Below are positions 4,796 to 62,982 of a DNA stretch of 64,000 nucleotides, piece by piece. The notes under the pieces are model-generated. The model was given only the letters and a program-made list of their open reading frames with translations. It searched no databases and was not told where the DNA came from. Source of the stretch: Alistipes sp. (GTDB taxonomy: Bacteria > Bacteroidota > Bacteroidia > Bacteroidales > Rikenellaceae); assembly GCA_045638285.1 (NCBI GenBank), contig JAZUBB010000019.1:43053-107052 (forward strand), in the 5' to 3' direction. Numbering within the stretch: the stretch's first letter is position 1; every line of letters starts with the position of its first letter. A program made the position numbers and the translations under genes.

Positions 4796-4822
4796 TTCGA
4801 AATACTAATCAAGTGATATGCA

Positions 4823-4856
4823 AAAGCCGCACTCTTCGGGGTGCGGCTTTTCTTTT
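4823..4856. terminator. Hairpin terminator, usable from both strands
   Basis: AAAGCCGCAC-TCTTCGGG-GTGCGGCTTT is flanked by A-run and T-run sequence. It lies between convergent genes. Confidence 0.6.
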
Positions 4857-4858
4857 GT

Positions 4859-4990
4859 TAATTCAAGATTCGAAAGGCAAAAATTTGAATTTTGAATCTT
4901 GAATTTTGCTTTTTTTGAATTTTGCTTTTTTTGAATCTTGAAAGCAAAAATTTGAATTTTGAATCTTGAATTTTGAATTTTGAATTTTAA
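4859..4990. repeat. Longest 7-bp tandem repeat array (TTGAATT/TTGAATC/TTGCTTT units), with an internal inverted segment
   Basis: About 130 nt of heptamer units. AATTCAAGATTC at the left end is the reverse complement of the GAATCTTGAATT units further right. Confidence 0.85.
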
Positions 4991-5001
4991 ATAATCTCCA
5001 A

Positions 5002-5430
5002 TTAGTAATCCTTCAAAAAGAGTTTCCAACCCGCATCGAGGGCGTCGAGTTGGGCGGGTGAGGGTTCGTGACCGCGTTCGAAACGGCTCATAGCCTCGGC
5101 AATGGCTCTCAGGCGTATGTCGCGCGGCTGCAACTCAGCGTCGGGATCGACCTCCGAGCGCGAGGCAACGAATCGGATATAGCTCTCGGTGTCGTTTTCG
5201 GAGGGTGGTGCCCAGCGCGTGATGATGGCACGCAGGGTGTCGATTGCATAGCGACGGCGGTAAGATTCGAGCAACACAAACATCGCTCGGTAGCCCCACT
5301 CGTCGCTCTCGAACTCCTTGAAGGCGGGGTCGCACGAGGGGCGTCGCTCACCGCGATAGCGCACTCCGCAACGGCGGATATTACCTGGGTTGTGGTTGCG
5401 TTCGGCTCGGGTCAGGGGGTGACGTTTCAT
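5002..5430 (-). CDS. Putative phage lytic enzyme (NHNPGNIR-motif family)
   Basis: 142 aa with an N-terminal RNHNPGNIR motif and a WAPPSENDT block. I recall these from a family often annotated as phi6 P5-like structural/lytic protein. ATGA overlap with the upstream holin gene. The assignment is from memory only. Confidence 0.45.
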   Translation of the reverse strand: MKRHPLTRAERNHNPGNIRRCGVRYRGERRPSCDPAFKEFESDEWGYRAMFVLLESYRRRYAIDTLRAIITRWAPPSENDTESYIRFVASRSEVDPDAELQPRDIRLRAIAEAMSRFERGHEPSPAQLDALDAGWKLFLKDY

Positions 5431-5870
5431 AGTTTTGGAGTGATTTGATTACCGAGCGTGTCGGCGAGTTGTTTCTGCATAAATTGTCTGAGCCAGCGAA
5501 AGGGTGGGTAGTTGCACACCTCAGCGCCGTTTTCGAGGAAACTCCACAACTCGACTCCGCACGTGAATCCCGTGAAGAGGTTTGCCAGACGCAGGTGGGC
5601 GAAGTCTAAAATCAGCGAGTCAATGAGCCACGCGAGGGCGATACCGACGATGATAATTGCGGTTTTGCGGATTGTATCCCACGCGCGATGGCTCTCGAAG
5701 CTCCACGCCGTACCGAGGCGTGCGGCGCGGTGGCGCGAGGCGAGGACACCCGTCACGAAATCGACCGCCACGAAGGTGATGGCGCAACAGATGAGTCCCG
5801 CAATGGGGGCAAACAGCCCGACGAGAGCCGACAACGCCCCGAAAATGAGTTTGAAAAGGGTGTTTTCCAT
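5427..5870 (-). CDS. Phage holin (holin_4 / toxin-secretion-lysis holin family)
   Basis: 147 aa with 3-4 predicted TM helices. It has the family-typical VDFVTGVLAS block after TM2 and is coupled to the lysin gene by a 4-nt overlap. Confidence 0.7.
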   Translation of the reverse strand: MENTLFKLIFGALSALVGLFAPIAGLICCAITFVAVDFVTGVLASRHRAARLGTAWSFESHRAWDTIRKTAIIIVGIALAWLIDSLILDFAHLRLANLFTGFTCGVELWSFLENGAEVCNYPPFRWLRQFMQKQLADTLGNQITPKL

Positions 5871-5897
5871 AGGTAGTTAAGTGTTAGCGTTTTTTTT

Positions 5898-5924
5898 AAT
5901 TCAAAAAGCAAAATTCAAGATTTT
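5898..5924. repeat. 7-bp repeat array (AATTCAA/AAAGCAA orientation)
   Basis: TAATTCAAAAAGCAAAATTCAAGATTT. Confidence 0.7.
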
Positions 5925-5943
5925 ACTTTACTATTAAAAGAGT

Positions 5944-6040
5944 ATACGCGGCGGCAGGGGGCGGCGCAACTGAAAGTTGCGGGTGCCGCCGCGTATGTCG
6001 AAATCAGAGATTTCGCCCGCCAATGATGAGCCTAAATGGA
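5944..6040. repeat. GC-rich nested palindrome (variant) plus CGAAATCAGAGATTTCG hairpin plus GATGAGCCTAAAT module, inside the phage-like operon
   Basis: Outer arms ATACGCGGCGGC (5944-5955) / GCCGCCGCGTAT (5985-5996). Inner hairpin GCGCAACT-GAA-AGTTGCG with a G-rich bulge. Same architecture as the copies at 17834, 21585, 26463 and 47968. Confidence 0.8.
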
Positions 6041-6050
6041 GGCAACGGAA

Positions 6051-6085
6051 TTAATTTTGAATCTTGAATTTTGAATTCTGAATTT
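6051..6085. repeat. 7-bp repeat array directly 3' of the 158-aa ORF
   Basis: TTAATTTTGAATCTTGAATTTTGAATTCTGAATTT. Confidence 0.75.
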
Positions 6086-6087
6086 CG

Positions 6088-6564
6088 TCAAGCGACTACT
6101 CCGCCGTCGATTCGGCAGCGACGCCAAATGTTCATTCGTGCGTTGTATTCGGGATAGTTGTCGGGGGCGGATTCGATTCGCGCGACGGCTTTACGCAGCA
6201 GCGTCGTTGCCTGAGCGAGAGTGGTGCGACGCAGCGAGCGGAGTTCGTTTTCGGTTGCGGCGTCGAGGTATTGGTTCGAGCCCTTCGACACTCCTGCCGC
6301 ACCTGTGCGCAGGGCGAGGGCGGGCAACATCAACGCGCGGGTGTAGAGCGCGAGGGCAGGAGCGACCCACTTGTCCATAAGTTCGGCATAGTCGCCTCCA
6401 ATCATCGCCTCAACCATCGCCTCGCCCAAGACGGGAACAATGAATCGCTCCTGCGCCACGCTGATAGTCAGCGGGTTGATGTCGTCAGGCGTAACGTGGT
6501 CGAGTGGCGCAAAGGCTTGCGAGGCGACCTTTTCGGGTGAAATAAGGTTTTCCATAGCGTTCAT
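6088..6564 (-). CDS. Hypothetical phage protein (possible head-completion/adaptor protein)
   Basis: 158 aa. Its start codon abuts the portal stop codon, which suggests translational coupling. Function is guessed only from its position after the portal gene. Confidence 0.55.
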   Translation of the reverse strand: MNAMENLISPEKVASQAFAPLDHVTPDDINPLTISVAQERFIVPVLGEAMVEAMIGGDYAELMDKWVAPALALYTRALMLPALALRTGAAGVSKGSNQYLDAATENELRSLRRTTLAQATTLLRKAVARIESAPDNYPEYNARMNIWRRCRIDGGVVA

Positions 6565-7779
6565 TTAGTCGATGTTACGAAGGTTATACTTAGTGATCTG
6601 CGCCAAGAAGGGCTGCTGGTCCTCCGCCTCAGGATCGTAGTCCAGTCCGTCAGCCTTGCGAGCCTCCCAAACGCGCATATAGAGGGGTTTGGCTTTGGTC
6701 GGCGGGCGGTTGACAATCTGCAACGACGAGGTGTCAAGACCCAAAATCGAGCGCATCAGCTCCTCGATCGGCTCCATCAGTTCGGCTTGCTCGGCAAGGA
6801 TCACGGTATTGAGCGCGATCTCATATTCGTGCAGAATACGGTCGGCATTGAATCCCGACGAGTAGTCCAGACCGCTCAACGCGCGGAACCACGAATGTGC
6901 CACAACGATGTCGCTCGTAGCCTGCGAGTGGAGGTCGGTCCAGTCGCCGTCGTTCGCCGAGCCGATGGGAATGAAGCGCGAGTTGTCGTCGCCTGCGCCA
7001 TCGCGGATCACGAACATCACCTGCCCGGGCGAACCTGCAAAACGACGCTCGGCACGACGCACCAGATCGTATGCCGCCTGCTCGTTGTCGATGTCGGCGT
7101 CGAGCATCATCACGCCCGAGAGTTGGAACGAATTGTCCAGACGCGAAATGTTCCAACGGTCTGTTTTGTAGGCGATTGCCGATACGTTCATACCTGCGAT
7201 GTAGGGCGGCACGCCATAGTGCGAGAACATCGGTTCGTAGTCCTTGTAGTGGATCATCGCGCGATGCAGACCCTCGTCATCGACCTCGAACGTGGGATAG
7301 AGAGCCACCGAACGCGCCTCGGCGAGCTTGAAGTGAGCCCAATCGTGGTGCAACAACACGTGCTGGTTGTCGCGTGCGAGGCGGCAGTGCGAGGCGTCGT
7401 GGTGGTAGAGCGCGAGAAACGAGTGGTCGGCATCGGTCACCACCTCCAAAAAGGCGTTGCCGAACAGCGACTTGTCGAATGCCAAACGGTTGAGCGTCTG
7501 ACGGAGCGTGTCGCCCGCACCATTGACGCGCTCGACAAACGAGCCGAGCAGGCGGTTCGAGTGGTCGAAATTGAAACCCTTGCCTGAGATGTAGTCTGCC
7601 TTGTCGTTGATGATTCGGCGGTGGGTTGTCGAGCGACGCGACATCAGCGCAAGAGCCTCAGGGAGCAGGTTGTCGTCGCCCCAACGCCAAAATTTATCGC
7701 TCTTGCAGCGCGTCGAGCGAACGAAGTAGGGATCCGAGCGATCGGCGGCAGCCAAAATTTTAGTTGGTTTATTGCTCAT
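6565..7779 (-). CDS. Candidate phage portal protein
   Basis: 404 aa. The N-terminal block LLPEALALMSRRSTTHRRIINDKADYISGKGF resembles the conserved N-terminal block of HK97/PBSX-type portals as I remember it. Size and context fit. Not verified by a profile search. Confidence 0.5.
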   Translation of the reverse strand: MSNKPTKILAAADRSDPYFVRSTRCKSDKFWRWGDDNLLPEALALMSRRSTTHRRIINDKADYISGKGFNFDHSNRLLGSFVERVNGAGDTLRQTLNRLAFDKSLFGNAFLEVVTDADHSFLALYHHDASHCRLARDNQHVLLHHDWAHFKLAEARSVALYPTFEVDDEGLHRAMIHYKDYEPMFSHYGVPPYIAGMNVSAIAYKTDRWNISRLDNSFQLSGVMMLDADIDNEQAAYDLVRRAERRFAGSPGQVMFVIRDGAGDDNSRFIPIGSANDGDWTDLHSQATSDIVVAHSWFRALSGLDYSSGFNADRILHEYEIALNTVILAEQAELMEPIEELMRSILGLDTSSLQIVNRPPTKAKPLYMRVWEARKADGLDYDPEAEDQQPFLAQITKYNLRNID

Positions 7780-7797
7780 AGTCTTTTCGGTTGATTT

Positions 7798-8301
7798 TTA
7801 GTTGATTAGAACGGGGGCGAGGCTCTCGGTATAACATTCGAGCATAATGTACGAAACGGGGCGTTCGTCGCGTTCCGCCTCGACCGAGTGACGCGCGGAG
7901 CCCATACGCAGCGGTTGCTCATAGCCCAGCAGAGGCGACACGCCGACCAACAGTTCCAAACCCGTATTGAGCCTTACGCGGGCAACCAAACCACCCAATC
8001 GCGTCGCCTCACGCAACGAGTCGATGAAGGCGGCGGTATCCTCGCGTGCGGGGAGTTCGAATCGCAGGGCGTGGTAGATCTCGGTCATACCGTTGCTGAC
8101 GGTTGCGGTCTGAATGTATGAGCCCGACTCGGGTATGAAATTGACGCGCACAAAGTGGTCGTCACCAATGATTTGCGGTTGCGAGCAACGTGTTTTGGTC
8201 GAGTCGAATGTAGGCAGAGCTAAACTTCGAGCCTCGATCAGTTCAATGGTGGCGACTCCCCCGACAAGGGAGCCGCACACACGGTTGAAACTTTCGATCA
8301 T
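7798..8301 (-). CDS. Hypothetical phage protein between the capsid and portal genes
   Basis: 167-aa intact ORF, 2 nt downstream of the capsid-candidate stop. I recognised no motif. Confidence 0.55.
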   Translation of the reverse strand: MIESFNRVCGSLVGGVATIELIEARSLALPTFDSTKTRCSQPQIIGDDHFVRVNFIPESGSYIQTATVSNGMTEIYHALRFELPAREDTAAFIDSLREATRLGGLVARVRLNTGLELLVGVSPLLGYEQPLRMGSARHSVEAERDERPVSYIMLECYTESLAPVLIN

Positions 8302-8303
8302 AG

Positions 8304-9281
8304 CTACTCGATGTGAGCATACGACATCAACTCAGGCAGCAGATAGTCGCAGCCAGCCATAAATACGGCACGCTGACGGTTCTCCATCTGGTCGGGGTTG
8401 TACCACATACGGATCTCGGTACCAGGGAAGTCCGCAGTGTTCACAGCCAAAGCCAAGTTGCGTCGGTCGGTCAGAATGATGAACGATTTGGGCAGGTCGT
8501 TGATCTGCTGCGAGTACTTGCTCAGCTGCAAGTCGATCACCGGCACGCCACGCATCGACAGACCCGTACGACCCGCCTGCTTAGCCTCGTAAGCGGCGTC
8601 GAGCACCACGCTGTCGAGCGAATTTTCGTAGGCGTTGTAGATATCCGACGTGCAGAAGAATGCCAGCTGACCCTCCGACTTCAATGCACGCAGCTCCTCA
8701 GGAGCGTCTGCCAGCATCTGTCGCAGCGTAGCCTCGACAAAGCCCTCGGTTGCCACCTCGCTTGCCTCGTAGGTCGAGTAGGTCATCTCCTCGCGGTCAT
8801 TGTGGATCGCTTTGAGCAGACCGTTGAAGGTGTTGAGCGAGCCATTCGCACGCTCGGTGTTGCCGAGCCACATCGTTGCGCGGATACTCTCGGCGATCGC
8901 CTGACGGAACAACTCGGTCTCGGCACTCTCCAACTCGGTACCCGACAGGTCGTCCATATTGACGTCGGCGCGGTTGGTGATCAGCTCGTAGACCATCGAG
9001 AAGTAGTCGGCAGCCGAGTATGCGATTTCCGCCTTGACCTTGCTCATATCAATCGACTTCTGATAGCGGTCGGCAGCCTTCGAGCCGTTCCAACCTGCGC
9101 CATAGGGCTGCAAGATGTCGCCACTGCGACGCCAGAAGTTGAGGGTGGTGGGTACGGGCATATTGTACATCACCTTGATGCCCAGATCGAGGGCGTCGGG
9201 ACCGTTCAACATAGGACGGAAGAAGATTGTTTCGAGCTCACGACCCGAATAGGTCTTGGGGTTTTCGATCAGTTTACTCAT
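8304..9281 (-). CDS. Candidate major capsid protein (HK97-fold class)
   Basis: 325 aa and the first ORF after the prohead protease, which are typical size and position. There is no signal peptide or TM helix. The assignment rests on context and general resemblance only. Confidence 0.5.
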   Translation of the reverse strand: MSKLIENPKTYSGRELETIFFRPMLNGPDALDLGIKVMYNMPVPTTLNFWRRSGDILQPYGAGWNGSKAADRYQKSIDMSKVKAEIAYSAADYFSMVYELITNRADVNMDDLSGTELESAETELFRQAIAESIRATMWLGNTERANGSLNTFNGLLKAIHNDREEMTYSTYEASEVATEGFVEATLRQMLADAPEELRALKSEGQLAFFCTSDIYNAYENSLDSVVLDAAYEAKQAGRTGLSMRGVPVIDLQLSKYSQQINDLPKSFIILTDRRNLALAVNTADFPGTEIRMWYNPDQMENRQRAVFMAGCDYLLPELMSYAHIE

Positions 9282-9360
9282 AATGGTTTTTAGGTTTTTG
9301 GTTGGTTAATAAAAATGAATTAATTGAGGTGTGTGGTCTGTTGTTTTTTACTTTACTTTC

Positions 9361-9440
9361 ATTTAGGCTCATCATCGGGGGGTGGGGGGCTCGCCCAAAG
9401 GGCGACCCGCCGATGATGACACGCTCTACTGAGCGTGCTC
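9361..9440. repeat. GC-rich nested palindrome (variant) plus a second hairpin, between the protease and capsid genes
   Basis: ATTTAGGCTCATC module, then arms TCATCATCGG (9369-9378) / CCGATGATGA (9410-9419). These enclose a G-run and the inner hairpin TCGCCC-AAA-GGGCGA. A second hairpin CACGCTC-TACT-GAGCGTG follows. Confidence 0.8.
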
Positions 9441-9445
9441 ACTCT

Positions 9446-9495
9446 GCTTTTTGCTTTTTGCTTTTTGCTTTTTGAATTTTGAATCTTGAATTTTT
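9446..9495. repeat. 7-bp repeat array (GCTTTTT x4 then GAATTTT/GAATCTT) abutting the protease stop codon
   Basis: GCTTTTTGCTTTTTGCTTTTTGCTTTTTGAATTTTGAATCTTGAATTTTT. Confidence 0.85.
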
Positions 9496-10363
9496 AGAAC
9501 TTTGCTTCGCGCATAGCGTCGGCGTCGCGCGAGTACGAGGCGGCATTAGCGGGCTCGACAGCCTCACGATCCGAGGGGTCTTCGGCAGATAGGATCGGAG
9601 TGGGTTGGGCACGCTCCTGACCGCGACGCAGAGCCTCGACAGCAGCCGATGAACGTGCCTCGATGGCTGCGGTTTCGATGTCGAGCACGGCGCGGGGCAT
9701 AGGCTCGTCGGCGGTTGGGCGCAGAACCGACATCAACCGCTCGGCAGCGTCGGCAATGCGAGCCTTCATCGTGCGGCGCGTAGCCACCGAGTCGATGATT
9801 CGGTCGACCAGACCCGCGTCGAGAGCCTCCTCAGGGGTTAGCCAGCGACCGTTGCCGCCATTTTCGTTCATCAGGGCGACGATCTGCTCCACCTCGCGTC
9901 CGCTACGTGATGAGTAGATTGCGGCAAGACGTTCGTCGGTTTTGGCGAGCAGGTCGAGGCTCTGTTGCAGGTCTACGGCGTTGCCTTCGGTGGCACTGAC
10001 CGAGCGGTGGATCAGATAGAGCGCACCCGACATAATCTCGCGGCACCCTTCGGAAGCGGCTTGTGCGATGATGGTGGCGGCTGAGGCGGTGTAGCCGTGA
10101 CAGCGCGTAACGACCTGAGCGTCAAGGGCGCAAAGTGCGTCATAGATCAACAGTGCGTCGGCGACGTTACCGCCCGTTGAGCGGATATTGACGGTGATTT
10201 GGTCGACGTCGAGCGAGCGGATTTCATCGAGTGCGCGGTTGAAAGCCTCGTAGGTTGCAACGCTGCGCGAGTCGTTCGAGGCGGGGTCGATGCCGATCGT
10301 ACCTTCGATGTCGATCACTGCCGTGCGGTCGACCGCGCAACGAATTTCAATGGAGTTTTTCAT
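9494..10363 (-). CDS. ClpP/S14-family prohead (head-maturation) serine protease with a C-terminal extension of about 100 aa
   Basis: 289 aa. ClpP-like core blocks: VNIRSTGGNVADALLIYDAL, GYTASAATIIAQA, LYLIHRS and TPEEALDAGLVDRI. The Ala/Arg/Glu-rich tail may act as a scaffold. Confidence 0.8.
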   Translation of the reverse strand: MKNSIEIRCAVDRTAVIDIEGTIGIDPASNDSRSVATYEAFNRALDEIRSLDVDQITVNIRSTGGNVADALLIYDALCALDAQVVTRCHGYTASAATIIAQAASEGCREIMSGALYLIHRSVSATEGNAVDLQQSLDLLAKTDERLAAIYSSRSGREVEQIVALMNENGGNGRWLTPEEALDAGLVDRIIDSVATRRTMKARIADAAERLMSVLRPTADEPMPRAVLDIETAAIEARSSAAVEALRRGQERAQPTPILSAEDPSDREAVEPANAASYSRDADAMREAKF

Positions 10364-10674
10364 TTTTGTAATAGTTTGATTGTTTGTTGATTAGAGGTGT
10401 CATAGACGGCGCGGCAGGCGGTCGAATAGGAACAACCGAAGTCGATAGCTGCCTGCTCCAATGCCTCGGTTTTGGCGCGTCCGCGGGTGACCTGCTCATC
10501 GACGTAGAGGGCTAAGGCAAGGGCACGCAGACGTGAGGTGTCGAGCAGGTTGGCGCGGATCAGTCGGTCGGCAATACGACGTGCGCGAATGGGAGGACAG
10601 AGATCGCGCAGAAGGCGTTCGAAAGGACGTGTATCAAGTGCCATAAACGATTGATTTTTAGACGAGTTGAACAA
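10360..10674 (-). CDS. Small helix-turn-helix-like protein (possible regulator or small-terminase-like DNA binder)
   Basis: 104 aa (94 aa if it starts at the ATG at 10644). HTH-like segment KTEALEQAAIDFGCSYSTACRAVY. Its stop overlaps the protease start. Confidence 0.4.
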   Translation of the reverse strand: MFNSSKNQSFMALDTRPFERLLRDLCPPIRARRIADRLIRANLLDTSRLRALALALYVDEQVTRGRAKTEALEQAAIDFGCSYSTACRAVYDTSNQQTIKLLQK

Positions 10675-13000
10675 ATCGGCAACGAGCCACGTGCTCCTCT
10701 TCGCGCCACTCCTCGATTGCCTCCAAGCGGTAGAGAGCCTCCTCGCCGTCGATGGTGAGGCGGAATACCGAACGTAGGTCGCGTCCTGCGGGGTCAGTCA
10801 CGATGATGGGCAGCAGGTCGGCAGCCGAGAGTTGCAACGAAAGAGTCACGCGCCGAGCCGAGTTAAGTTCCTCATAATGAGCGTCGAAGTAGCGATGCAG
10901 ACCCTCTTCTCCGTCACGATCTTCGAAACAGAGCGACCCCTCGGCTGAGTGAAATGCCGCGTGCGGATAGGCTGCGGCAACCAACCCCCAACGCTCGTCG
11001 TCGGGCAGGGTCCTCATACCGTTGTAGAGCAGGATTTTGGTCGGGAAGTTGAGTTGTGCGGGGTCGTCTGCGTCGCGGTCACCCACCTGCGGCAACGACA
11101 CCGACGGTGCGAGCGAGAAGATCTCCGAGGCGTTGATCGTGGGGGCAAAAATCGGGTTGCAGGCGTCGCGCGTACCCTCGTCGGCAAGTTTCGAATCGAC
11201 CTCACCGACCCACTCGCCAAAGCGATCGTCGTGCTGTTGGTTGTATCGTCCGACGGCTCCGTCACCCACGAGGTAGCGGTGCAGCGTACCCTCGTCGCTA
11301 CCCATTGCAGCCGAGCAGATGACGATCTGCTGCGATTGAATGACGCGGTCGCTCCAATCTATAACACTCTCACGCTCAACCATATCGGCTGCCGATTCGA
11401 TGTAGACCTTTCGCTCGATGGGGTCGGTGTAGAAACGCAGGTTGAACATATGAGCGAGCGATTCGAGCAGGTCGACCTGACGCATATCGTAGTGCAGCAC
11501 GTCGGCAAGCGCGAAGGTCGAACCGAGGGCGGGATTGGGTTGGAACGAGGGGTATGCGCGGGTCGAGGCGTAGAGGGTCATCGACTGTCCTGCGGCGGCA
11601 CCTCCGAAGGCTATGTTACGGAACTCGAAAGGCTCCGACGCCGACACTTCGCGCGGTGCGGTGGCTACGGTCACCTCGACCTCGGTCTGCCCCGTCATCT
11701 CGACATAACCGCCATAGAGTGCCCAATCGTTCGGACAAGGGATATAGTTTGATGTGCCCGAGGGTCGATACATAAGCATTGGCTCATAGGGAGTTACGGC
11801 TGTGGAGATCGTGAACAGAGCGTTGTTCGATGAGAATTCGACGGCAATCTCCTCGGAGGTTACCGAGCCGCGACGAGCGAGGTAGACGAGTCGGTAACTT
11901 GCGCCCGCTTGATGATCGAATACCACGCAACGGTACTCCACTCCTGAGCGAATCTCGGCGCGGTGGTCGATAAAGCGGTTGGCTAAGGCAAATTTGTAGC
12001 AATTTTCGGCGTCGAGCCAAATCGTGTCGAAACCCTGCAACGTGTAGCGCGTTGCGATGCGGTAGTCGGTTGCGTAGTGGAGTCGGCAGACGATCGAGGC
12101 ATTGACCTTTTCGTGGGGTGCGAAGATCGCTCCACCCTCCTCGATACGGAACGAATCGTCAGCTGCGTGCAGGTCGGTTGCGTCTGCCGAGGGTGCGACC
12201 GTATCGACCAGATTACCAACGGTATTGAGCGACGTGAAGGGGTTTGCATAGACCATTCCTCGGCTGTCTGCTTTGGCGGTTGTAGCGGTCGAGCGACCTG
12301 CACGGAACCCCATTTGGGCGTCGAGACGCGAGGTGTCGCGCTCGGCAAAACGACCACTCATCACCAATCGGTTGAAGGGGTGCGAGTTGAACAGACGGCT
12401 CTCGACGCGATAACCTGCGTCGGCAAAGATCGCCTCGACAATCTTCGGCACACTCACAAAGGGGTGGAAATCGGTCAGTGAGGGGATCTGCTGCACGGGC
12501 ATTAGCTCGACATCGGAACGCAGAGCGGTGTATCGGTCGCGCAGCACGGGCAGCATACGCACCACGCTGTCGTTCTCCCAGCTGTCGATGATCGCGGTTG
12601 AGTCGAATGTTGCCGAGAAGTCAATTCCCACCTCGTCGATCTGTCGAAGCGAGGCTGTGCGTGCCCACTCGTGCGCACCCGAGATGATCTCGATTGAGTA
12701 GCGATCGCCCGTGGTGGTGCACTCCGTCCCGACGAGCAACACCGTACCCTCGATGAGCGTCACGCCGTCGAACTCGATTCGCGCCTTGTGCTCCACGTCG
12801 TTGAACGAGGTGGCGGCAAGAATCCGATCGTCATAACCGATGATCTCTCGATTTTGGCGACAGATCGGGATCGAGAGTCGGTAGCGTCGTCCCACACGCA
12901 GAGCTTTGAACGAACGCAGGTCGGCAGCGTCGAACGAGATGCTTGGGGCTACTGTGGCGGCGTCGGTCAGGCAGAGTCGGTTATCAATGTAAAGTTTCAT
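10658..13000 (-). CDS. Large hypothetical protein (780 aa), possibly a tail or adsorption component
   Basis: Long intact ORF in the operon, beta-rich, with no TM helix, signal peptide or nucleotide-binding motif. I recognised no family. Confidence 0.6.
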   Translation of the reverse strand: MKLYIDNRLCLTDAATVAPSISFDAADLRSFKALRVGRRYRLSIPICRQNREIIGYDDRILAATSFNDVEHKARIEFDGVTLIEGTVLLVGTECTTTGDRYSIEIISGAHEWARTASLRQIDEVGIDFSATFDSTAIIDSWENDSVVRMLPVLRDRYTALRSDVELMPVQQIPSLTDFHPFVSVPKIVEAIFADAGYRVESRLFNSHPFNRLVMSGRFAERDTSRLDAQMGFRAGRSTATTAKADSRGMVYANPFTSLNTVGNLVDTVAPSADATDLHAADDSFRIEEGGAIFAPHEKVNASIVCRLHYATDYRIATRYTLQGFDTIWLDAENCYKFALANRFIDHRAEIRSGVEYRCVVFDHQAGASYRLVYLARRGSVTSEEIAVEFSSNNALFTISTAVTPYEPMLMYRPSGTSNYIPCPNDWALYGGYVEMTGQTEVEVTVATAPREVSASEPFEFRNIAFGGAAAGQSMTLYASTRAYPSFQPNPALGSTFALADVLHYDMRQVDLLESLAHMFNLRFYTDPIERKVYIESAADMVERESVIDWSDRVIQSQQIVICSAAMGSDEGTLHRYLVGDGAVGRYNQQHDDRFGEWVGEVDSKLADEGTRDACNPIFAPTINASEIFSLAPSVSLPQVGDRDADDPAQLNFPTKILLYNGMRTLPDDERWGLVAAAYPHAAFHSAEGSLCFEDRDGEEGLHRYFDAHYEELNSARRVTLSLQLSAADLLPIIVTDPAGRDLRSVFRLTIDGEEALYRLEAIEEWREEEHVARCRFVQLV

Positions 13001-13013
13001 AAAAGGTTGTGTT

Positions 13014-14003
13014 TTAGACGGTTCGAGAGATTGTTTCGGTGTAGCTCAACTGCACCACGAGGCGATCGGGACGCTCCACGGGGTGCGACAAATAGTCGGC
13101 TGTAATCACCTCGACCTTGCGCGGACGACCATCGACAAAGAGCCAAACGGCGGGCGACGAGAGCAACGACAACAGCGCGTCGAGCGAGTTGTGGGGCATA
13201 ATTCCGCTGTCGAGCGTGATCGTTATGCGACGTGTGGTGAGGGGATCGGGCGCATTGGCGACGCGGCTGCGTTCGATGGTCACTCTACGCCCACCGCACC
13301 CCTCAAAGGTGTGCAGGTCGCAGGCTCCGAGCGAGTTGAACCACGCCACGCGGTGGCTTGCTGTGCCGCGCTCGACCACGTCGTAGATGATCATTCCGAC
13401 CTCTTTTTTCGAGGAGTGGAGAGTCACTGCGATACGTTTCAATGGGGCTGTGATACGCGCCTGCAACGAATCGAAGTCGATCACCACGCCGACCATCTGC
13501 TCGCGCTCCTCGGACGAGAGGGTGTAGGGCGTTGCGTTGCCCTTGTCGTCGATAAGTTGTATTATCGCAGCGATCGTTCCGTCCTCGGAGATGAAACGCA
13601 GGTCGTCGTTTTCGCCCGCCGCTATGGTACGGAGGAGAGGTTTGTCCGAGAGCAATTCGCAGGGTGCGAGGGGTGAGTTGTGGGGCGCAGAGAGGGTTGC
13701 GGGGAGGTTTTGCGACTCGATGTCACCAATGCGAATATGGCAGTTGATGATCGACGAGGGGTGACCGACGGAGTATGTGCCCGAGTTGGTCACGGGATTG
13801 AGAATGAAGTGACGACGCAGGTAGGGAGCGATGTCGATCGAGCGCGTGGCAAGACCTTTCAGACGCAACGTACCGAGTGTTGCTCCGTTGTCTGAGTTGA
13901 TGATCTCGACCGATGTAACCGCGTCGGGATCAAGTCCTTCGAGGGTGTAGAGCAGCGGTTCGACAGCCGAGGCGTATGGCGCAGGTGAAGATGTGATGTT
14001 CAT
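13014..14003 (-). CDS. Hypothetical protein (329 aa)
   Basis: Intact ORF, 13 nt upstream of the 780-aa ORF. No recognised motif. Confidence 0.55.
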   Translation of the reverse strand: MNITSSPAPYASAVEPLLYTLEGLDPDAVTSVEIINSDNGATLGTLRLKGLATRSIDIAPYLRRHFILNPVTNSGTYSVGHPSSIINCHIRIGDIESQNLPATLSAPHNSPLAPCELLSDKPLLRTIAAGENDDLRFISEDGTIAAIIQLIDDKGNATPYTLSSEEREQMVGVVIDFDSLQARITAPLKRIAVTLHSSKKEVGMIIYDVVERGTASHRVAWFNSLGACDLHTFEGCGGRRVTIERSRVANAPDPLTTRRITITLDSGIMPHNSLDALLSLLSSPAVWLFVDGRPRKVEVITADYLSHPVERPDRLVVQLSYTETISRTV

Positions 14004-14018
14004 AGTTTTTCGGTGTGT

Positions 14019-14429
14019 TTAGATGCAGTATTCGACTTTGATTGTGAAAGTAGCGACGATACCCAGCTCGCCGTGGTTGGTTGTTTGGAAGGCGGTCGGA
14101 GTCAGTTTGACGTTGTCGAGGGCGATGACGCCACTACTGATCGAGAGCGCGTGGAGCAGATTGATGGCGTCGAGTTCGACCCTCTCCCATACCGTTTCGG
14201 GGTTGAGTACAGCCTCGCGGTCGGCGCGGTGGAGCAGTCGTAGCGAGATTCGGTAGCTGATAGAGCCTTCGCCTAACCCCTCGACGGCGGTGGCTATGGG
14301 TGTATCGAGCCACGCGGTGGGATAGTTACGGATTGTTGCGGTGGCGACTGCGGGGTCGCCCGTTGCAAATGAGTAGCCGAGCGGCTCGACGGCGGCACGC
14401 AGGGCGGTGAAAAGTGAAGATCGGTTCAT
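14019..14429 (-). CDS. Hypothetical protein (136 aa), first gene of the phage-like operon
   Basis: Intact ORF. Its size and style resemble small phage neck or tail-completion proteins, but that is a guess. Confidence 0.5.
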   Translation of the reverse strand: MNRSSLFTALRAAVEPLGYSFATGDPAVATATIRNYPTAWLDTPIATAVEGLGEGSISYRISLRLLHRADREAVLNPETVWERVELDAINLLHALSISSGVIALDNVKLTPTAFQTTNHGELGIVATFTIKVEYCI

Positions 14430-14439
14430 TGTTTAGAAT

Positions 14440-14589
14440 ATGTCGATAAAGTGTTAAGATGTGTCGATAACCATTGACAACCCACTGCAAAAGATGTGAG
14501 ATAGCGGGCGCAAAGCATTGATAGACAATGCTGTTCGATGGTTTAATATTCGAGTGTTGAAAACCCGCGCTATGGAGTGTCGAAAACCG
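14440..14589 (-). promoter_or_regulatory. Four phased direct repeats GTGTYGAWAAC in the leader of the phage-like operon (candidate operator or iteron set)
   Basis: ATGTCGATAAA at 14440-14450 and GTGTCGATAACC at 14461-14472 (21-bp spacing). GAGTGTTGAAAACC at 14552-14565 and GAGTGTCGAAAACC at 14575-14588 (23-bp spacing). Confidence 0.55.
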
Positions 14590-14615: not shown

Positions 14616-14623
14616 CAAATATA
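14616..14623 (-). promoter_or_regulatory. Candidate -7 promoter box for the phage-like operon
   Basis: Plus-strand CAAATATA is TATATTTG on the minus strand, a perfect TAnnTTTG. It lies about 190 nt upstream of the first ATG, so the direct repeats fall in the transcribed leader. Confidence 0.4.
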
Positions 14624-14892
14624 GTGTTTCGGGAGGGCGTTTGTCAAGAGGTGAACGCAAAATTTTTCGCAAGTTGAGAATCGTCCACCCGCCACAATGG
14701 TGAGAATGAGCACGCTACGCCACCCGAAAAAATGCAAAAATTTTGCAGTGAAAGCCAAAAAAGCGCGTTGGTTTGCTATTTTTTTGCGCTCGGAGGCGGC
14801 AGTTTCCAAAAATTATATTAATTTAGCGGCGGATTATGGCTACGTGTGTCCATAGTCCGCTATGTTTCACCAAATGCTCAACAATATGGACG

Positions 14893-16786: not shown

Positions 16787-16833
16787 AATTCAAAATTCAA
16801 GATTCAAAATTCAAAAAGCAAAATTCAAAATTA
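16787..16833. repeat. 7-bp repeat array
   Basis: AATTCAAAATTCAAGATTCAAAATTCAAAAAGCAAAATTCAAAATTA. Confidence 0.85.
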
Positions 16834-18025: not shown

Positions 18026-18058
18026 AATCTTGAATTTTGAATCTTGAATCTTGAATTG
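18026..18058. repeat. 7-bp repeat array directly 3' of prfC
   Basis: TAATCTTGAATTTTGAATCTTGAATCTTGAATT. Confidence 0.85.
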
Positions 18059-21403: not shown

Positions 21404-21431
21404 AGATTCAAGATTCAAAATTCAAAATTAA
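21404..21431. repeat. 7-bp repeat array
   Basis: GAGATTCAAGATTCAAAATTCAAAATTAAT. My by-eye indexing here may be off by 1 nt. Confidence 0.75.
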
Positions 21432-21658: not shown

Positions 21659-21686
21659 TAATCTTGAATTTTGAATCCTGAATTTT
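21659..21686. repeat. 7-bp repeat array directly 3' of the S46 peptidase gene
   Basis: TAATCTTGAATTTTGAATCCTGAATTTT. Confidence 0.8.
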
Positions 21687-44075: not shown

Positions 44076-44100
44076 GATTCAAGATTCAAAATTCAAAATT
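44076..44100. repeat. 7-bp repeat array inside the dcw cluster
   Basis: GATTCAAGATTCAAAATTCAAAATT. Confidence 0.8.
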
Positions 44101-54390: not shown

Positions 54391-54446
54391 AGATTCAAAA
54401 TTCAAAATTCAAAATTCAAAGTTCAAAGTTCAAAAAGCAAGATTTC
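54391..54446. repeat. 7-bp repeat array
   Basis: AGATTCAAAATTCAAAATTCAAAATTCAAAGTTCAAAGTTCAAAAAGCAAGATTTC. Confidence 0.85.
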
Positions 54447-54534: not shown

Positions 54535-54566
54535 CAATTTTGAATTTTGCTTTTTGAATTTTGAAT
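54535..54566. repeat. 7-bp repeat array (opposite orientation) directly 3' of comF
   Basis: AATTTTGAATTTTGCTTTTTGAATTTTGAATA. The hairpin ACACGCC-CATAT-GGCGTG at 54475-54491 lies between the two arrays. Confidence 0.8.
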
Positions 54567-62950: not shown

Positions 62951-62982
62951 ATTCAAAATTCAAAAAGCAAAATTCAAAATTA
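62951..62982. repeat. 7-bp repeat array immediately after the nadB terminator
   Basis: ATTCAAAATTCAAAAAGCAAAATTCAAAATTA. Confidence 0.85.

Follow-up and report, generated by a model that had tools for sequence, protein, structure and literature searches.

A phage-derived structural and lysis operon domesticated in Alistipes and other Rikenellaceae

Introduction

Why should the chromosome of a gut bacterium keep, between housekeeping genes, a compact set of phage head and lysis genes that has neither a terminase nor an integrase? The question is raised by a stretch of DNA from Alistipes sp. (assembly GCA_045638285.1, contig JAZUBB010000019.1, positions 43,053-107,052 of the forward strand), which was analysed over its whole length of 64 kb and is called the window in the following. 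On the minus strand, from position 5002 to position 14429, the window holds 11 intact, co-directional and tightly packed genes. This region represents that half of a domesticated prophage which encodes structural and lysis proteins, and it is vertically inherited in Alistipes, Tidjanibacter and related Rikenellaceae. From gene content and comparison among relatives we propose, with moderate confidence, that the operon and a separate module encoding the large terminase subunit (TerL) would together form a split, repressor-controlled, domesticated particle system, similar to a gene transfer agent (GTA) or to PBSX.

Gene Content of the Cluster

The eleven minus-strand open reading frames (ORFs) described in a first-pass annotation of this DNA are all present at their coordinates, and in another locus with the cluster, on a 348-kb scaffold, independent gene calls gave the same 11 genes. 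From the first gene of the cluster to the last they are:

14019-14429, minus strand: o136, a 136-aa protein, first gene of the cluster, in the same position in at least 30 loci and in full phages
13014-14003, minus strand: o329, mainly beta-sandwich domains (AlphaFold2 model with a predicted local distance difference test score, pLDDT, of 90.8)
10658-13000, minus strand: o780, tail-tip/baseplate-hub-like (AlphaFold2 model, pLDDT 90.1, compared with the PDB by Foldseek)
10360-10674, minus strand: o104, small protein; alignment of 15 homologues with a conserved C-terminal motif K-T-x-A-M ... F-x-C-S-Y
9494-10363, minus strand: ClpP-like prohead (head maturation) protease (Pfam CLP_protease, 1e-29; phrog_94, 5.7e-38)
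8304-9281, minus strand: probable major capsid protein (phrog_1623, 'head and packaging / virion structural protein', 8.5e-12)
7798-8301, minus strand: o167, conserved, between the capsid and portal genes in 43 loci and in full phages
6565-7779, minus strand: portal protein (PF04860, 8.5e-11, 42 bits with a cut-off of 39.1; phrog_11226, 4.4e-17)
6088-6564, minus strand: DUF6712 protein, directly after the portal gene (PF20459, 2.3e-12)
5427-5870, minus strand: holin (PF05105 Phage_holin_4_1, 6.8e-11; phrog_199)
5002-5430, minus strand: endolysin-like peptidoglycan hydrolase (phrog_873 'endolysin', 2.5e-43)

The portal protein and the prohead maturation protease are components expected of an HK97-type tailed-phage head module. 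In addition to the families listed, the protease matches the NCBIfam head-maturation model NF045542 (2.5e-30, yet under the curated cut-off), and the portal protein matches the PBSX portal model TIGR01540 (1.3e-14, under the curated cut-off as well). The capsid candidate reaches NCBIfam capsid_maj_Podo at 6e-4, under its cut-off, and phrog_1623 is matched by 14 of 15 capsid homologues. A sequence and profile search of the PDB with the capsid protein gave no useful match, nor did a search with the single portal sequence. The capsid and portal genes are the two best conserved; the capsid has 54-97% identity over 150 species-level matches. The DUF6712 gene follows the portal gene in both reduced forms of the cluster and in the full phages described below, a position from which its product is possibly a head-tail connector. 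The operon is closed by the holin-endolysin pair, in which the start of the endolysin gene overlaps the holin stop codon; in the PDB the endolysin-like protein matches the endolysin 7q47 (1.1e-11) and the N-terminus of Gp29 (9vvp, 3.3e-15). Profile searches thus agree with the five identities first assigned by inspection (protease, capsid candidate, portal, holin and lytic protein), the capsid as a probable one. An encapsulin reading of the cluster was dropped, since portal and protease are present.

A number of absences had been noted by inspection as well. For terminase, integrase and replication genes they stand: none was found in the region or elsewhere in the 64 kb, and a tblastn search of the whole window with the family's own TerL returned nothing even at E<10. 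For tail genes they stand only in part, as the structure models of o780 and o329 indicate. The Foldseek matches of o780 in the PDB include the baseplate of a contractile injection system (7b5h), the lambda tail tip (8iyk_F), Mu gp44 (1wru) and the MuSo2 43-kDa protein (3cdd), as well as the monocin tip (9j1k_L, probability 0.98), the JBD30 baseplate and TNF-like jelly-roll folds. These matches are weak but consistent, and the assignment of o780, which is kept in at least 50 loci, as a baseplate-hub or tail-tip protein is plausible and not secure because E values are ~1e-3 and template modelling (TM) scores are low. The protein was also considered as a disguised terminase and rejected, having no ATPase motif and a hub-like fold. 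For o329, Foldseek gave generic Ig-like folds only against the PDB; against the viral library BFVD it gave TM scores up to 0.81 and E values down to 3e-22 with uncharacterised proteins of many tailed phages, among them Flavobacterium phage 23T, Nonlabens phage P12024S and Polaribacter phage Leef_1. Since it matches phage proteins and adjoins the hub gene in related phages, o329 is probably a tail or tail-tip component. The fold search suggested in the first-pass annotation thus gave, for these two proteins, a weak hub-like result for the one and a match to phage proteins for the other; on these models the cluster would hold tail-tip genes besides head and lysis genes. Tailocins consist of a sheath and tube with a baseplate and have no head genes; here head genes are present and neither sheath nor tube is recognisable.

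Other search routes were less informative. PDB profile searches with o329, o780, o104 and o136 gave nothing useful, and when 36 diverse homologues of o136, o329, o167 and o104 were scanned with Pfam and PHROG, no match of any meaning came up. The conserved C-terminal motif of o104 resembles a helix-turn-helix (HTH), and the protein is possibly DNA-binding or regulatory.

Conservation, Synteny and Selection in the Rikenellaceae

The capsid gene was scanned for in one genome per species; 150 genomes were matched and 80 loci were fetched. All 80 fetched loci are from Rikenellaceae, namely Alistipes, Tidjanibacter, Rikenella, Millionella and Mucinivorans. Carriers in culture include Alistipes hominis New-7 (locus L030). 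The compact cluster of the window, here called type O, occurs in 53 of the 80 and in at least 50 Rikenellaceae species, with the gene order o136-o329-o780-o104-protease-major capsid protein (MCP)-o167-portal-DUF6712-holin-lysin. On one side of the window cluster lie rnpB (231 bits in Rfam), folE and a gene for an fn3-domain protein with a lipoprotein-like N-terminus, and on the other an mqnA-like gene, corA and RF3. The corA-mqnA flank is common to 16 fetched loci of Alistipes-type genomes, even at a capsid identity of 55% and a corA identity of 70-75%. In other clades the flanking housekeeping genes are different ones, rnhB or lolE-ubiE, and are stable as well; in a neighbour-joining tree of the capsid the clades follow the flank groups. 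The larger genes gave single full-length alignments in 46 loci, and most of the small genes are intact ORFs in 27-45 loci.

The ratio of nonsynonymous to synonymous substitution rates (dN/dS) was calculated between the window genes and those of seven relatives, for pairs with a dS of 0.25-2. It is 0.04-0.43 for all 11 genes, and their dS is similar to that of the adjacent corA, mqnA and folE. By gene, the ratio is ~0.05 for the portal, 0.07-0.16 for the capsid, ~0.2 for o780, 0.13-0.31 for o136, 0.23-0.43 for o329, 0.06-0.19 for o104 and 0.16-0.40 for o167. Codon usage is host-like, with a GC content at third positions (GC3) of 0.693 in the element genes and 0.697 in the host genes, and a correlation of relative synonymous codon usage (RSCU) of r=0.90.

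As in a GTA, a phage-derived structural cluster is thus fixed in the chromosome without integration, excision or replication functions, and it is inherited vertically with the host lineage, with purifying selection on its structural genes. The integrase, attachment (att) sites and lysogeny, replication and packaging modules of an integrated temperate prophage are found neither in the region nor in the window. The window has no tRNA, and no attachment-site-like repeats were seen at the locus, where no systematic search for them was made. An active prophage is excluded because gene order and flanks are conserved, the genes are under selection, and both dS and codon usage are host-like. A functionless prophage remnant, intact by chance, would be in line with the many missing phage functions and with the existence of full-length relatives; yet 11 of 11 ORFs are intact, dN/dS stays within 0.04-0.43, gene order and promoter are conserved and codon usage is host-like, and the remnant reading is close to refuted.

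Several claims of the first-pass annotation are borne out by these data. The housekeeping flanks that it had named (rnpB, folE, a lipoprotein-like gene, an mqnA-like gene and corA) were recovered by searches, and the host-like codon style, judged by eye, agrees with the computed GC3 and RSCU. The comparison across relatives for presence, synteny and dN/dS, suggested there, showed a corA-mqnA flank common to 16 fetched loci, a conserved gene order and purifying selection on the genes. The idea of a long-resident, co-opted element in place of a decaying prophage is upheld by synteny, purifying selection and host-like dS and codon usage.

Related Full Phages and a Second Reduced Form

The same genes, in the same order, are found inside full phages of ~41-44 kb, on IMG/VR contigs of 37-44 kb, with capsids 56-62% identical and an o780 24% identical to those of the window. 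The phage order runs from a DNA methyltransferase ... through TerS (the small terminase subunit), TerL, a 312-aa protein (X312), o136, a Neck1-like protein, o329 and o780 to a 1086-aa structural protein, the protease, MCP, o167, the portal, the DUF6712 protein, a 119-aa protein and a 1447-aa fibre. The uncultured phage IMGVR_UViG_3300045988_132707, for example, is homologous gene for gene to the window cluster, in the same order. Unlike the window cluster, these phages have TerS, TerL, the 312-aa protein, the Neck1-like protein, the 1086-aa protein, the 1447-aa fibre and the DNA methyltransferase and, unlike type O clusters, they are without the promoter TTGACAA-N16/17-TATATTTG. The extra phage genes have no homologue in the window, nor in any of the compact loci on chromosomes, and the window has no homologues of related-phage genes outside 5002-14429. 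The full phages carry the same module with extra genes, yet the compact form is conserved; for this reason the window copy is seen as a derivative that was reduced and then fixed in the chromosome, not as a fresh remnant. Full-length prophages carrying these genes had been named beforehand as a finding that would speak against co-option if this copy were an obvious deletion remnant of them: full-length relatives do exist, and the window copy is no such remnant, being fixed, conserved and selected.

A second reduced form, here called type T, occurs in Rikenella, Millionella and Mucinivorans (L048, L050, L052, L057, L059, L064, L066-L068 and L073; for example L073:5245-14794). It measures ~9 kb and has housekeeping flanks. 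Its gene set comprises S24 repressor, two small ORFs, TerL, protease and MCP, then portal, long DUF6712 protein, membrane protein, M23 peptidase and a further ORF; neither tail genes nor an integrase were found in type T clusters. Judged by gene content, type T is perhaps a sister form, without a tail, from the same domestication. A further variant of the architecture is seen on a 42.8-kb IMG/VR contig (L109:5712-6377), where an S24 repressor homologue (49% identity) immediately precedes a truncated o780 and the genes for protease, capsid and portal.

Compact clusters are also listed as viral in IMG/VR (L090, L091 and L110-L115), by either misclassification or host DNA in the virus-like particle fraction. 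MT838736.1 (L001, 1-7414), a human faecal sequence labelled 'UNVERIFIED: Bacteriophage sp.', is a chromosomal fragment with the host mqnA and the compact cluster.

Such small IMG/VR contigs with the compact cluster would suit a helper-dependent satellite of the capsid-forming phage-inducible chromosomal island (cf-PICI) type, which makes its own capsids and borrows terminase and tails, as would capsid genes without a terminase or tail fibre and the existence of helper-like related phages. This option of the first-pass annotation is not supported and is very improbable: genes for integrase, excisionase, replication or primase are absent, no tRNA or att-like repeat was seen, the locus keeps its place in the chromosome across species and has a host-like dS, and the capsid tree follows the flank groups. 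The integrase with a replication/primase module and the variable insertion sites of PICIs and cf-PICIs are not found. Moreover, the virome scaffold MT838736.1 includes the host mqnA and is not, for this reason, an excised element.

The related phages also bring in the reading of a phage-defence or interference locus, in which the head, tail-tip and lysis genes would poison or hijack the assembly of related 41-44 kb phages or trigger suicide, the TerL module being a separate relic and no host-beneficial particle being made. Closely related full phages with capsids 56-62% identical exist, the cluster seems to lack some essential virion genes and comes with a lysis cassette, and long-term conservation suits any selected function. 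Strong family-wide selection on a complete protease-capsid-portal-connector-hub set is hard to explain in this way, and the TerL module itself is independently conserved, adjoins the cluster in two or three genomes and has the same promoter motif. We consider interference unlikely.

A Stand-Alone Terminase Module

The packaging motor of the particle system proposed here would be encoded away from the structural operon. A profile search with the family TerL recovered thousands of proteins, and the context was inspected for seven Alistipes and Tidjanibacter TerL proteins in five distinct chromosomal contexts. All seven lie in the same three-gene module, in which a repressor with HTH_3 and Peptidase_S24 domains is on one strand and an 87-102-aa ORF followed by TerL is on the other. 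The contexts are argR|potABCD, ...|glpABC, EamA|NMO, thioredoxin|PFOR and, in Tidjanibacter-type contigs, a place beside the cluster. The modules are located as follows:

L135:8781-11440
L152:8884-11404
L153:8894-11512
L154:8784-11434
L138:8746-11410

A scan of metagenomes with the repressor profile gave >456 matches, of which 80 loci were kept; all 80 fit the module, with repressor and small ORF, and with TerL wherever the contig reaches far enough. The repressor is 64-87% identical across lineages, and its S24 Ser and Lys motifs are invariant. Between L138 and L037, dN/dS amounts to 0.08 in TerL, 0.04 in the repressor and 0.22 in the small ORF. By the usual criteria of low dN/dS and intact S24 motifs, the module is judged functional.

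In some genomes module and cluster are neighbours. In L037 and L138, contigs of the Tidjanibacter type that are closely related to each other, 2.4 kb separate the module from the type O cluster; their TerL is not part of a type T cluster, because an unrelated gene comes next. In L079 the TerL 3' end is 4 kb upstream of the cluster, and in L025, an Alistipes metagenome-assembled genome (MAG), the repressor and small ORF are 6 kb downstream of the cluster and the locus ends short of TerL. These TerLs are 54-58% identical to the type T TerL, and that of L037 is ~58% identical to the phage TerL. By NCBI protein accessions, TerL and o780 homologues fall in different MAGs; nucleotide comparison of TerL and cluster loci linked the two only in the Tidjanibacter and rnhB-flank groups; and none of the 80 kept metagenome modules has a cluster within 10 kb or matches the window. 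The suggestion that the packaging ATPase is encoded elsewhere is thus supported in relatives, by a separate module of repressor, small ORF and TerL, and no such gene occurs in the 64 kb analysed here.

The missing terminase is also the starting point of another reading, in which the cluster makes particles without DNA or has a non-particle role: holin and endolysin would release either empty shells or a device for protein delivery or secretion, with no terminase involved. Neither TerL nor TerS is present in the cluster or window, and the retained lysis pair could serve protein release. Portal and maturation protease, however, are hallmarks of a DNA-packaging head, and a TerL of the same ancestry is kept under selection in the family with no other cognate head genes nearby, so that a DNA-free role is considered quite unlikely.

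Promoter and Leader of the Operon

A further connection between operon and module is a promoter signature. Upstream of the first gene the window has two elements:

14616-14647, minus strand: promoter signature of the operon, TTGACAA-N17-TATATTTG, located ~190 bp upstream of o136
14441-14470, minus strand: leader carrying a pair of direct TTATCGACA repeats, located 10-45 nt upstream of the start codon of o136

Promoters of Bacteroides follow the -33/-7 layout of Bacteroidetes with TAnnTTTG as the -7 element, and the signature at 14616-14647 fits this layout. It occurs once in the window, with 0.00 occurrences expected, and is the best sigma-70-like match in the region (11/12). A search of 152 loci, 4.65 Mb with both strands counted, gave 70 matches of the composite with N16/17 spacing. 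Nearly all are single sites upstream of the type O cluster (~45 related loci) or, in the rnhB-flank group, of its X312-like first gene; the remaining ones are upstream of the small-ORF/TerL pair in several TerL modules. No composite promoter was found in ~45 full-phage loci or in type T loci. Both TTATCGACA repeats are kept in six genomes of the clade, L005, L069, L061, L011 and L009 among them, despite diverged surroundings, and they are possibly a regulator site.

The loci of the rnhB-flank group, a clade of Alistipes (L013-L035; for example L031:3527-4369), have an extra first gene, whose product is 24-35% identical to the 312-aa phage protein. In this group the promoter signature is upstream of the 312-aa-like gene, a gene that the window's clade has lost.

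A Model for a Split Particle System

The proposed GTA-like or PBSX-like system would work as follows. The promoter region would drive the 11 genes for the head (protease, capsid, portal and connector-like proteins), the tail tip (o329, o780 and perhaps o136) and the holin-endolysin pair. The packaging motor would act in trans, from a module with a LexA/CI-type HTH and S24 autocleaving repressor, an ORF of ~100 aa and TerL. A stress signal, probably through RecA-stimulated self-cleavage of the repressor, would derepress TerL in a subpopulation of cells, and the structural operon would be derepressed too, directly or indirectly. Proheads would then assemble and mature, TerL would load DNA, a short tail tip would join, and holin and endolysin would release the particles. 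With these steps of assembly, packaging and release, the system would work like a GTA or a PBSX-type defective-phage particle, and the particles may serve to transfer host DNA, to kill competitors or for both ends. That the two loci are regulated together, and that particles assemble, package DNA, are released and transfer anything, is all deduced from sequence. A bolder version, which we put forward as possible and more tentatively than the model itself, is a GTA of independent origin across the whole family Rikenellaceae, whose members are abundant among gut Bacteroidota; in it TerL would be kept under a LexA/CI-like self-cleaving repressor with a promoter-tied structural operon elsewhere, DNA damage in the gut would trigger capsid-mediated export of chromosomal DNA, and type T would be a second outcome of the same domestication.

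Several points weigh against the model. Within the cluster no gene for TerS, tail tube, tape measure, neck or fibre could be recognised, for which reason the particle may be incomplete. The product of 8304-9281, probably the major capsid protein, is a candidate for the HK97 fold by HMM (hidden Markov model) matches only; the matches of o780 are low-TM ones; and the DUF6712 protein, placed as a connector by gene position only, has no assigned function. Family matches are missing for o167 (Pfam, PHROG), o136 (Pfam, PHROG, PDB) and o104 (families, PDB). No TerL module could be placed in one genome with a corA-mqnA-flanked cluster, and because the two loci were not found together in this group, a TerL module for the source genome is something that we infer. 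The functional link between module and cluster is drawn from ancestry, from proximity in two or three genomes and from the promoter motif, the TTGACAA part of which is absent from three TerL modules (L152, L153 and L025). Finally, the only virome scaffold with the locus, MT838736.1, is marked as unverified and is a possible contamination.

Relation to Known Particle Systems

PBSX of Bacillus subtilis is a fixed defective phage, SOS-induced via a phage-type repressor, which packages host DNA and lyses its producer. It occupies a single locus of ~28 kb, which includes its terminase and a full contractile tail, and its particles serve mainly for killing. The system proposed here differs in having ~12 kb in two loci and no recognisable sheath or tube. 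The cf-PICIs, for their part, are mobile elements with integrase, regulatory and replication modules and their own TerS and TerL, which borrow only tails. The window cluster resembles them in having its own protease, capsid, portal and connectors and not a full virion; it differs in being immobile and syntenic across species, without integrase, regulatory, replication or TerS-TerL modules.

RcGTA keeps TerS and TerL at the start of a cluster of ~15 kb, has a full siphovirus-like tail with a tape measure and is governed by the host regulators CtrA and GafA. In the system proposed here TerL stands apart, the tail is smaller, a repressor of the phage S24 type has been kept, and the domestication is an independent one in Bacteroidota. 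A vertically inherited, domesticated structural cluster under purifying selection, without integrase or replication genes, is shared with the RcGTA-type elements of Alphaproteobacteria, which are released by lysis and have further loci at other places of the genome (PMC12946183).

The closest analogue is FpGTA of Faecalibacterium prausnitzii, a compact, phage-derived element that is near-ubiquitous in its gut genus and is documented by particle, proteomic and packaged-DNA evidence (PMC12946183). FpGTA has two operons ~125 kb apart with about 10 genes per operon, a short-tail set, and a holin and endolysin (PMC12946183). The two systems are alike in being compact, carried by a gut commensal, split in two loci and provided with holin and endolysin. 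In FpGTA, TerS and TerL are encoded with the portal and capsid, and the second operon encodes baseplate, fibre and lysis functions (PMC12946183); here head, tail-tip and lysis genes are together, TerL is apart with a repressor, and the system is known from its genes alone. The host of FpGTA belongs to the Bacillota, and no sign of homology is apparent between the two elements, whose sequences were not directly compared.

Full-text literature searches returned no description of a GTA-like element for Alistipes or Rikenellaceae, and the Faecalibacterium element was presented in a 2026 Nature Communications study as the first element of a GTA-like kind in a gut commensal (PMC12946183). What is new here is probably an independent domestication in Bacteroidota, with the packaging motor and a phage-type repressor apart from the structural operon. 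If the particles carry DNA, a dominant gut genus would have a built-in, stress-inducible means of horizontal gene transfer or kin killing. If the model is true, current prophage and virome pipelines misread the system, fragments of which IMG/VR and GenBank already list as "phage". The full phage and two differently reduced chromosomal forms allow a gene-by-gene comparison of domestication, and the keeping apart of TerL and repressor suggests a way in which a host could tightly control the dangerous step. The promoter signature provides a handle for regulon-wide searches in closed genomes.

Intergenic Repeats and Surrounding Genes

The remaining large ORFs of the window are housekeeping genes, with the dcw division and cell-wall cluster, priA, queA, lpxB and an EF-G-family GTPase. 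Two intergenic inserts interrupt the operon, and a related arrangement is found at its end:

9282-9493, minus strand: intergenic insert with heptamers TTCAAAA/TTCAAGA, an AAAAGC run, a GC-rich hairpin and AGTAAAGTAAAA
5871-6087, minus strand: second intergenic insert of the same repeat family and architecture
4822-4991, no strand assigned: operon end, with a long heptamer array and then a 13-bp GC-rich hairpin common with the convergent lipoprotein gene

The two copies of a host-type intergenic repeat reported inside the operon are real. The insert at 9282-9493 is predicted to be a probable transcript 3' end and restart. Heptamer repeats follow the protease, DUF6712 and lysin genes, and the cluster appears to have three units. 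A 74-aa ORF at 4805-5029, 3' of the lysin gene, was rejected as a gene, being almost certainly translated heptamer repeat (FKIQNS...).

The tandem 7-nt repeat (TTCAAAA/TTCAAGA) has 36 matches in the window, with 0.35 expected. Most arrays lie directly 3' of stop codons, on the gene's own strand, after host and element genes alike, and some of them then carry a GC-rich hairpin, CATCATYGGCGGG. The arrays of the window are at 2244-2327, 4885-4991, 6057-6082, 9472-9490, 16789-16814, 18030-18055, 21407-21425, 21664-21675, 44078-44096, 54394-54433, 54554-54565 and 62952-62963. The exact 12-mer of the heptamer array is absent from 8 of 9 other Rikenellaceae loci checked, the one match being in L153; because of this absence from most relatives, the element looks lineage-specific and associated with 3' ends or terminators.

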